Source: a virus
Lineage: Duplodnaviria > Heunggongvirae > Uroviricota > Caudoviricetes
DNA length: 64,000 bases
IMG/VR virus record: IMGVR_UViG_3300046460_000418
Direction: 5' to 3' (one strand)
Shown here one piece after another: positions 39,628-41,078 of the stretch. Position 1 is the stretch's first letter, and each line of letters opens with the position of its first letter. The notes below the pieces were generated by a model. The model saw nothing but the letters and a program-made list of their open reading frames with translations, was not told the origin of the DNA and did not search any database. A program made the translations under genes and the position numbers.

Positions 39628-40263
39628 TTAAATTTTCATTCCAGATGAAGGACGCAACTCTTCGGCAAGCTCGTCGAAGCGGCTGCGGGCGACCTCAGGC
39701 AACCAATCGAGCAACTCCGTGCCGTGAGGCTCATACTGACCGACGAAGTCGAAGCCGCCCATGCGCTGATGGGTTTCTTTCAGCCCTGCGATAATCTGCT
39801 CATCTGAAGCAACCTGACGCGCTGCCGCAACATGGCTCTTGAGGAAAGCTTCCAGCTTGGCGGACGCGGTCGGTGCGGACTCGATGCCCCGTGCAAAGGT
39901 GTTCAAGGCATATTGCAATTCGTAACCAGGGTCGAATTCGTTCGAGATAGGGATGGAGCGAACGAGCGAGCTTCCGCCTGGAATGTTCGTGACCTCGTGC
40001 TGTTCAAATTTGTACTTGTTGCTTTCGGACATATCCATGGCGTAGCGAATACGGTGGAAAAAGCTGCCTGCGAGTTCCGGTGTATCGAGGCCATCGAATT
40101 CGCCATTTTTCCGCCAGGCGACCAATTGGTCGCGCGAACCCGCCAGCTTGACGCCTACATTGACCATGGCGTCTTCAAAAGTTGGGACGATGGAGCCTGC
40201 TTGCCCATTGGTGATGATCTGGAAAACGGTTGAGCCAACTTTGGCGGGTTCGGATGTCGACAT
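39628..40263 (-). CDS. Hypothetical protein Q1 (~212 aa) ending ...ELRPSSGMKI (same tail as P4)
   Basis: GAGGACC RBS before the ATG at 40263 (MSTSEPAKVG...). Its last 15 nt 'ggaatgaaaatttaa' are identical to the end of P4 (17299-17313). Confidence 0.65.
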   Translation of the reverse strand: MSTSEPAKVGSTVFQIITNGQAGSIVPTFEDAMVNVGVKLAGSRDQLVAWRKNGEFDGLDTPELAGSFFHRIRYAMDMSESNKYKFEQHEVTNIPGGSSLVRSIPISNEFDPGYELQYALNTFARGIESAPTASAKLEAFLKSHVAAARQVASDEQIIAGLKETHQRMGGFDFVGQYEPHGTELLDWLPEVARSRFDELAEELRPSSGMKI

Positions 40264-40340
40264 GAATAAGGTCCTCGATATGGTCGTCCCGACTATGTGA
40301 GGCGACGACGCAAGCGGCAATCCAAACAGTCAGGACTCGA

Positions 40341-41078
40341 TCAGATTTTGAAAGCTGGAGCAGGGAGGTCGTAGCCCCTCTCGTCAGCAACAGCTTGCCA
40401 GGCGTCATGATCTTCGCCTTCAAAATCGACGAAGCTGCCGACGAGTTCCTTGAGATCAGCAATCTGCTCGAATTGAATGGTGTTGAGCGTCCAGCCCGGC
40501 ATTTTGAGACCATAGGTCACAATGTTCGGGCGATCTTCAACCAACCAGCCTCGGGTTTTACCCTCCCACGCCAGTTCCTGCATCTTGTTGATGAGAGCGA
40601 CGTCGTTTGCCAGCGGCTCGAACTCCTTCGTAACCATATCAGCGAGCAATTCGGGAAAGTATCTGGCTTCGGTGATGTAGGGGCGGAGAAGTTCCCTCGA
40701 ACTTACATCTCGCACACCGCCATAGTCCGCTCCGCGAAGCTTCTGGCTTATGAACCCCCGAATTTTGTTCTCGGCTGGTGTCAATTTGATCCGCACTTGG
40801 TGGGGCTCAAAGCCAAGATGATTGGCCTCAATCTCGTTCGCCCTTGGTGTCAGTCCCCATTGTGTGATCGTCATGGAGCGCTCATCGATCAGAACATATC
40901 CGCCTTCTAGTGGAAGAGGTTGTTCCCCAACTGTGACGTAAGCCATCTTATCGAGGGCATGAACGTCGCCTTCCAAAAATGCGGGAGTCAGGGCCGCACG
41001 ACGGAAATGGTCGTTGTAAGTGTGATAAGTCTTGAAGGTTCCATCCTTAAGCGCAACGCTGACTGCCAATTCGTCCAT
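40341..41078 (-). CDS. Hypothetical protein Q2 (245 aa) ending ...LPAPAFKI (same tail as P5)
   Basis: GAGGGATAGGG RBS + ATG. Clean ORF. Tail '...gcT TTC AAA ATC TGA' compares with P5 '...gcC TTC AAA ATT TAG'. Confidence 0.7.
   Translation of the reverse strand: MDELAVSVALKDGTFKTYHTYNDHFRRAALTPAFLEGDVHALDKMAYVTVGEQPLPLEGGYVLIDERSMTITQWGLTPRANEIEANHLGFEPHQVRIKLTPAENKIRGFISQKLRGADYGGVRDVSSRELLRPYITEARYFPELLADMVTKEFEPLANDVALINKMQELAWEGKTRGWLVEDRPNIVTYGLKMPGWTLNTIQFEQIADLKELVGSFVDFEGEDHDAWQAVADERGYDLPAPAFKI

Follow-up and report, generated by a model that had tools for sequence, protein, structure and literature searches.

A probable C-terminal tag shared by DUF8359-family paralogs and small acidic proteins of unrelated sequence

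Why should proteins with no recognizable kinship end in the same few residues? The question is raised by the caudoviricete record IMGVR_UViG_3300046460_000418, of which we analyzed a stretch of 64,000 nucleotides (nt), referred to here as the window. Two neighboring genes of this stretch, Q1 and Q2, encode acidic proteins whose C-termini (…FDELAEELRPSSGMKI and …RGYDLPAPAFKI, respectively) resemble those of P1 to P5, a tandem plus-strand array of DUF8359-family paralogs that spans 12989-18453 and lies ~22 kb from the Q block (Table 1). An earlier reading, made from the sequence alone, had proposed that tails such as DELAEELRPSSGMKI and YDLPAPAFKI (the latter being that of Q2) constitute a recognition element shared by different protein bodies. 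The tail sequences and coordinates that it gave for Q1, Q2, P3, P4, P5, and two further genes named here R1 and R2 were all correct, including the ESLKI end of R1 and the DTGFKL end of R2, which is matched by DTGFRI in P3. Its observation that the bodies of Q1 and Q2 do not align with the P family was borne out by profile and BLAST comparisons, which also rule out remote homology of either one to P proteins or between the two.

We therefore asked how often such ends occur at true C-termini. A scoring matrix for the last four residues was trained on 102 distant P members, with the window lineage excluded, and the ends of non-P genes near P or Q genes were scored against internal tetrapeptides of the same proteins. 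In the window, 4 of 41 non-P genes (R2, Q1, Q2, and R1) reach or exceed the 99th percentile (p = 7.5e-4). When related loci, read as ~20-kb pieces of their contigs, are pooled and orthologues are counted once, this is true of 14 of 162 non-P genes, with 1.6 expected (p = 1.4e-9). The signal is tied to the exact C-terminus: moving the scoring window 1-7 residues inward gives 0-4 matches. The other controls gave 27 matches among 1414 open reading frames (ORFs) in other frames and 2 among 133 annotated Escherichia coli genes. The pattern originally proposed was applied to all 472 ORFs that run from stop to stop and are no shorter than 60 aa. It matches nine, each of them long, and has no match among the others, most of which lie in other frames; eight of the nine were compared with the syntenic relative described below, and all eight have orthologues there. 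Against chance, which the sequence-only reading had named as the yardstick, the motif is thus enriched both in the window and in the pooled related loci. Coincidence, or a skewed composition of protein C-termini in the lineage, might be suspected of a motif that is short and degenerate, that was first sighted post hoc, and that is not enriched at several loci. Nevertheless, we consider it highly improbable in view of the independently trained matrix, the three controls, and the upstream features described below, which differ at positions unused for selection. The tail is very probably a real C-terminal tag.

Is it the peptide or the underlying DNA that is conserved? The syntenic relative, JGI contig Ga0495660_0000001 (loci L003 and L007), encodes proteins that are 75-95% identical to those of the window. 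The codons of the P4 tail are GGA ATG AAA ATT TAA in the window and GGA ATG AAG ATT TGA in the relative, those of the Q1 tail GGA ATG AAA ATT TAA and GGC ATG AAA ATC TAA, and those of the P5 tail TTC AAA ATT TAG and TTC AAA ATC TGA. Where the tail peptides change, they do so conservatively, as in R1 (ESLKI to QSMKI), R2 (GFKL to GFKI), and the product of 38369-39001 (SLPSI to ALPTI). Substitutions between orthologous tails are L/M, I/L/M, K/R, and S/T, while codons and stop codons vary. Likewise, the same peptides are written in different codons in P5 and Q2, in P3 and R2, and in the relative's P4 and Q1, and all three stop codons are in use. This conservation of the peptide while the codons change makes it unlikely that the tails are recombination cassettes or owe their likeness to overlap with ribosome-binding sites.

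The first of these DNA-level explanations, a 3' cassette exchanged by recombination, was among the candidates of the sequence-only reading, which had found the 3' ends of Q1 and P4 to be identical over 15 nt. The identity in fact spans 17 nt (GGAATGAAAATTTAAGG), corresponding to four codons, the stop codon, and two extra bases. It goes no further, since the flanks do not align and the 3' regions of P4 and Q1 show no similarity beyond these 17 nt, of which the window contains no further copy at up to two mismatches. The other explanation, whereby the last codons overlap the ribosome-binding region of the next gene, would suit P1-P4, Q1, and 36434-37048, whose stop codons are surrounded by GGA/GAG-like bases and precede the next start codon by 1-11 nt. 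However, no gene follows closely downstream of P5, Q2, R1, or R2. Moreover, the matrix of peptide ends carries over from one locus to another at G+C contents of 51%, 53%, and 54%, with only weak enrichment at L010 (64% G+C) and L013 (48% G+C). We rejected the cassette reading as well as translation coupling or ribosome binding; a DNA-level origin appears largely refuted and is very hard to credit. On this comparison of codons and peptides, the tails appear to be a short linear C-terminal signal selected at the peptide level.

How far does the signal extend? We compared 21 tagged non-P proteins, picked by eye from the high scorers, with 117 untagged neighbors at positions outside those used for selection. 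The tagged proteins are small (median 156 aa) and more acidic, with a median isoelectric point of 4.6 versus 5.6 in untagged neighbors, and no N-terminal signal peptide was seen in them by eye. At positions -7 to -5, they are enriched in small residues (0.65 versus 0.37, p = 4e-5) and in proline (0.24 versus 0.06, p = 5e-5), and at positions -14 to -8 in acidic residues (0.32 versus 0.16, p = 1.4e-5). Since the two groups do not differ at positions -20 to -15, the signal is ~14 residues long. Position -3 is proline in 0.62 and hydrophobic in 0.38 of the 21 proteins. The layout suggested for non-P proteins is thus an acidic block (about -14 to -8), a linker of small residues and proline (-7 to -4), F, M, L, or P at -3, usually K or R (otherwise G, S, or T) at -2, and a free terminal residue that is either hydrophobic or proline.

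The P family carries a related end on a very different body. In the window, P1-P5, which share ~25% mutual identity, end in RW[NDE][LM]RP, followed by 4-9 residues and then [GAS][PFM][RKG]I. A profile search (E <= 1e-3) recovered the wider family as 137 representative clusters among 1.8 billion, nearly all with RWxxRP followed by a tail that is mostly 8-9 residues long. In 114 such tails, position -4 is G/S/A, -3 is F/P/L/M (78 of 112 tails), -2 is G/S/R/K/T, and -1 is P/L/R/I/M/F, the last residue being proline in 35 of 114 (31%) and arginine in 16 of 114. Reduced to its essentials, the end is a small residue, then F/P/L/M, then K/R/G/S/T, and then I/L/M/F/P, which makes for a loose motif. 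The assignment to PF27633 (DUF8359) comes from precomputed Pfam matches, which are clear for the P4 orthologue (E <= 1e-5) and weak or faint for other orthologues and distant members; a profile built from the window paralogs recovers the proteins bearing these matches. A Pfam scan of the window P proteins gave no match, the DUF8359 model being apparently absent from the scanned set.

An AlphaFold2 (AF2) model of P4 is confident (predicted local distance difference test [pLDDT] of 90) and matches no known fold. Its last five residues fall below a pLDDT of 50, so the P4 tail is predicted to be disordered within an otherwise confident model, and it is not docked in cis. By extension, the P-family tail would be a disordered segment of ~8-9 residues after an invariant RWxxRP, the closing element of a bundle of C-terminal helices. 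With a helix preceding the tail, the acidic block and the small-residue enrichment of the non-P proteins are not seen in P tails.

These boundaries correct one part of the original proposal, in which [LM]RP belonged to the shared element. Q2 has no LRP, and its orthologue ends DIPTPAFKI. Q1 orthologues retain G-[ML]-[KR]-[IM] at 48-77% identity, and those at ~50% identity have lost LRP while G-[ML]-[KR]-M is still present. LRP is the P-family fold boundary (RWxxRP) and lies outside the shared tag. The idea of a shared recognition element thus survives in its central part, a tag on different bodies, on the strength of enrichment at the exact C-terminus, conservative substitutions between orthologues, and recurrence in distant genomes; its LRP component and the recombination cassette do not. 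As a side observation, a 173-aa protein encoded right after a four-gene P array (L010, 11657-12178) ends …MTLRPLEGADFAARLRP, with an LRP followed by a tail as in P proteins, although it is far shorter than they are.

Does the tag occur beyond the window? In the Q block of the relative, five non-P genes end alike and are interleaved with others: Q2 (PTPAFKI), Q1 (PSYGMKI), a 181-aa gene (AMGMKI), a 216-aa gene (PAGMKI), and R2 (DTGFKI), in addition to weaker P-x-I ends (LALPTI and TQPTI). At L009, which has three tandem P genes, neighbors end SGPKM, DAPKP, PAPRM, and ANPKF. At L014, the 425-aa neighbor of a single P gene (7706-8983) ends EPAFGMKI; we considered whether this protein is an ADP-ribosyltransferase, on account of R, S-x-S, and E-x-E motifs seen only by eye, but Pfam and Protein Data Bank (PDB) sequence searches were empty and the idea is unsupported. 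At L021, a 93-aa gene directly downstream of a P gene, within a TerB/BrxC-like/helicase island, ends SAPAPGM, while L016, a locus of the Q1 lineage, has APGM, TPKF, and MPGI ends. Neither L016 nor L006, both tag-rich, has a P gene within 10 kb; where tag-rich loci do contain P genes, the P family is the one gene family that they all share. No distant contig carrying both P4 and Q1 orthologues was found, scans of reference-genome, metagenome, and viral contigs found no relatives, and tblastn against plasmids and phages gave no match.

The set of tagged genes differs even between close relatives. The 216-aa gene of the relative (L007, 12156-12806) is missing from the window (region 38037-38368), the 156-aa gene (L007, 13320-13790) is reduced to its last codons, and the 181-aa gene is split, its AMGMKI end having degenerated to SMGMNV. 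Such turnover of tagged genes is what a client or effector repertoire would lead one to expect.

Since P genes occur in tandem arrays of three to seven diverged paralogs, which suggest hetero-oligomers, the P proteins themselves might be the receptor or scaffold, each paralog binding the tail of its neighbor and clients copying that tail to dock. The three near-identical tail pairs of the 64-kb window, all kept in the relative, would fit this arrangement: P3/R2 (DTGF[RK][IL]), P4/Q1 (GMKI), and P5/Q2 (AFKI). So would the place of the P family as the one family common to P-containing tag-rich loci. However, the pairing fails elsewhere. A GMKI client at L012/L014 has no GMKI paralog, the tails of the L009 neighbors (P-K/R-M/F/P) differ from the local P tails, and the tag-rich L016 and L006 manage without a nearby P gene. 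The P4 tail is, moreover, free in the model. We regard this arrangement as improbable.

We then compared the tag with known C-terminal signals. Substrates of the type IVB secretion machine Dot/Icm carry hydrophobic residues at -3/-4, upstream small residues, and an "E-block" rich in glutamate (PMC3052360). The tags described here are alike in having F, M, L, or P at -3, small residues or proline at -7 to -4, and an acidic block at -14 to -8. As in the Dot/Icm systems of Legionella and Coxiella, a loose signal in an unstructured C-terminus is borne by many unrelated, often paralogous, lineage-specific carriers. The hydrophobic -3/-4 position is found in both groups of proteins, with the -3 frequencies given above, whereas the acidic block and upstream small residues occur in tagged non-P proteins and are not seen in P tails. 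Two differences stand out. P tails extend only ~9 residues past a folded helix and have no acidic block, and the basic -2 with a hydrophobic -1 is not described for Dot/Icm signals. No family of a type IV secretion system (T4SS) is listed in the ~20-kb pieces of related contigs.

Other known signals fit less well. Class II PDZ ligands, the Y-x-F tails of outer-membrane proteins read by DegS, and the substrates of tail-specific proteases present hydrophobic-x-hydrophobic at a free C-terminus, which is read together with its carboxylate. The tails of the window lineage (MKI, FKI, FRI, LKI, and FKL) have this form. The fit is only partial because so many family tails end in proline or arginine; bacterial PDZ proteases are periplasmic, in contrast to tagged proteins lacking a visible signal peptide; and no PDZ reader was matched in Pfam scans of window proteins or in precomputed neighbor listings. 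The type 1 peroxisomal targeting signal (PTS1), S/A/C-K/R/H-L/M/I, is eukaryotic and takes unrelated proteins to one destination through the receptor Pex5. Window-lineage tails share its basic -2 and L/M/I at -1 but differ at -3, which is bulky or proline (F/M/L/P) instead of small, and a TPR receptor was not found. Encapsulin cargo-loading peptides are short C-terminal peptides in which a flexible linker rich in small residues and proline precedes a small-hydrophobic-basic core, and their unrelated cargo proteins are encoded near one another. The tags resemble them in placing a small-hydrophobic-basic end after such a linker on unrelated neighboring proteins but have no G-S-L-type core and no adjacent gene for an HK97-fold shell.

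The ssrA tag (LAA) and the C-terminal tip of SSB (DDDIPF) consist of an acidic or polar stretch and a hydrophobic tip at a free C-terminus, read by a hub or a protease. The tags share this two-part layout, acidic block then hydrophobic tip, although the sequences differ and the basic -2 has no counterpart there. The resemblance bears on what we see as the main rival explanation, namely that the tail is a degradation signal. An AAA+ or tail-specific protease would read the hydrophobic-basic-hydrophobic end, perhaps with an adaptor on the acidic block, and the island proteins would be short-lived, as with ssrA. Dependence on the exact C-terminus, the ssrA-like layout, the tail disorder in the P4 model, and the cytoplasmic nature of the proteins all suit such a signal. 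However, known ClpX C-motifs are LAA or of the basic RRKKAI type, and no LAA-like or RRKKAI-like end occurs among the tails of the window, the relative, the P family, and L009. A constitutive signal on every paralog of a stably folded, widely conserved 350-aa family would also be unusual, and no linked gene encodes such a protease or adaptor, ClpS at L010 being a reader of N-termini. We therefore judge a degradation signal unlikely, albeit less so than a P scaffold; if it were one, it would represent a new specificity class.

The tag thus appears to belong to none of the families testable here and is best described, from its sequence features, as a C-terminal recognition tag tied to DUF8359. 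What might read it? The dependence on the exact C-terminus, the disordered and exposed tail, the loose but position-specific motif, and the unrelated carriers point to one partner that reads the motif together with the terminal carboxylate. We infer a common receptor, encoded outside the stretches seen, that would bring together at one place the P paralogs and a shifting collection of proteins that are small, acidic, cytoplasmic, and of no known family. That set, with its paralog expansions, resembles a client or effector repertoire. The most likely destination would be an export, packaging, or assembly machine, and a targeting tag is favored because the layout (hydrophobic -3, small residues, and upstream acidic block) matches the descriptions of Dot/Icm substrates. 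Taken as a whole, the proposal that a single common partner reads the tail as a targeting label for export, packaging, or assembly is our tentative preference and stops somewhat short of probable.

Several observations weigh against it. No receptor, secretion (including T4SS), compartment-shell, or PDZ gene was recognized in the window or the listed ~20-kb neighborhoods, and no non-P neighbor is conserved across distant P loci. P arrays also occur in ordinary chromosomal or defense-island contexts, which indicates no single machine. Enrichment is weak or absent at the P loci L002, L010, L012, and L013, and pieces of ~20 kb cannot tell a genome-wide habit from an island-specific one. The motif is loose, and proline as the final residue of 31% of family tails is unusual for known readers of C-termini. 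Finally, the tagged set behind the upstream features was chosen by eye.

Short C-terminal tags address unrelated proteins to secretion machines, compartments, hubs, and proteases, and each new tag has made hidden clients predictable from sequence. The tag described here connects the structurally novel DUF8359 with changing, family-less, small acidic proteins in conflict-rich islands. If the receptor of the proposed targeting tag exists, the motif would offer a handle for finding it, for listing clients genome-wide, and for building a portable reporter tag. A more specific version is conceivable but doubtful: a previously undescribed sorting or translocation signal, marking DUF8359 and a fast-changing effector-like repertoire in conflict or defense islands of uncultured bacteria and read by an unrecognized machine or hub.

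The features of the window are collected in Table 1.

Table 1. Coordinates of tagged genes, P paralogs, and surrounding features in the window
Feature	Position	Strand	Remarks
Giant surface-protein gene with signal peptide	1-6270	-	~1900 to >2400 aa across the four such genes
tRNA-Asp	6549-6623		between the first two giant surface-protein genes
Giant surface-protein gene with signal peptide	6784-12576	-	
Sixth P paralog remnant (C-terminal piece)	12762-12947	+	upstream of P1; RWxxRP disrupted (…LERWASGPSI)
P1, DUF8359-family paralog	12989-14113	+	likely start GTG 13007; ends RWNLRPTDLTASGPRI; tag codons 14099-14110
P2, paralog	14124-15197	+	ends RWNLRPVEAGLSASPGI; tag codons 15183-15194
P3, paralog	15209-16231	+	ends RWEMRPMDTGFRI (…DTGFRI); tag codons 16217-16228
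P4, paralog	16234-17313	+	ATG 2 nt past P3 stop; ends RWDLRPAGQNAGMKI; tag codons 17299-17310
P5, paralog	17323-18453	+	ends RWNMRPVAESDAFKI; tag codons 18439-18450
R1	25275-26108	-	277 aa; ends AAESLKI; tag codons 25278-25289; orthologue ends AQSMKI
Helicase (ResIII, Helicase_C)	28262-31405	+	1047 aa; five helicase-associated (HA) domains
Remnant of a 156-aa tagged gene	37626-37694	-	last 23 codons (…AAATAQPTI, stop); intact in relative, rest deleted here
R2	37710-38036	-	108 aa, acidic; ends RDTGFKL; tag codons 37713-37724; orthologue ends LDTGFKI
Acidic protein with weaker P-x-I tail	38369-39001	+	210 aa; ends ERLSLPSI; orthologue LALPTI; 97.7th percentile
Split gene (overlapping ORFs 39356-39619 and 39075-39359)	39075-39619	-	single 181-aa gene in relative
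Q1	39628-40263	-	211 aa, acidic, no family match; C-terminus EELRPSSGMKI; tag codons 39631-39642
Q2	40341-41078	-	245 aa, acidic, no family match; C-terminus DLPAPAFKI; tag codons 40344-40355
Membrane protein with SPFH/Band 7 domain	43161-45248	+	695 aa; adjoins Q block; 91% identity in relative
Giant surface-protein gene with signal peptide	47787-54152	-	
Giant surface-protein gene with signal peptide	56555-64000	-	

The true starts of P3 (15209) and P4 (16234) lie directly after the upstream stop codons, and the remnant upstream of P1 matches the C-terminal part of an additional P paralog at L012. Scans of P, Q, R, and most island proteins against Pfam, NCBIfam, PHROGs, and PADLOC returned nothing for tagged proteins; matches were limited to the helicase with its HA domains, the SPFH protein, a split alpha/beta hydrolase, and a methyltransferase. 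The SPFH/Band 7 protein could not be linked to the tag. The hydrolase, in overlapping ORFs at 54600-55488 (+), is a single 288-aa gene in the relative; like the split gene at 39075-39619, it reflects either an assembly frameshift error or a pseudogene.

The island is bracketed by the four giant surface-protein genes, with He_PIG domains on the orthologues of the two listed relatives, and the N-terminal part of its helicase matches PADLOC models of type IIG or type I restriction-modification enzymes. Genes of the TnpB type (Cas12f1-like_TNB/OrfB_IS605) lie near P genes at L002 (3765-5660), L014 (3239-4462), and L015 (932-2155). Around other P loci, there are conflict-type genes: R2K ATP-grasp, Nmad3, GmrSD_N, TerB, BrxC/BrxD-like ATPase, and Metallophos (L013 and L021).

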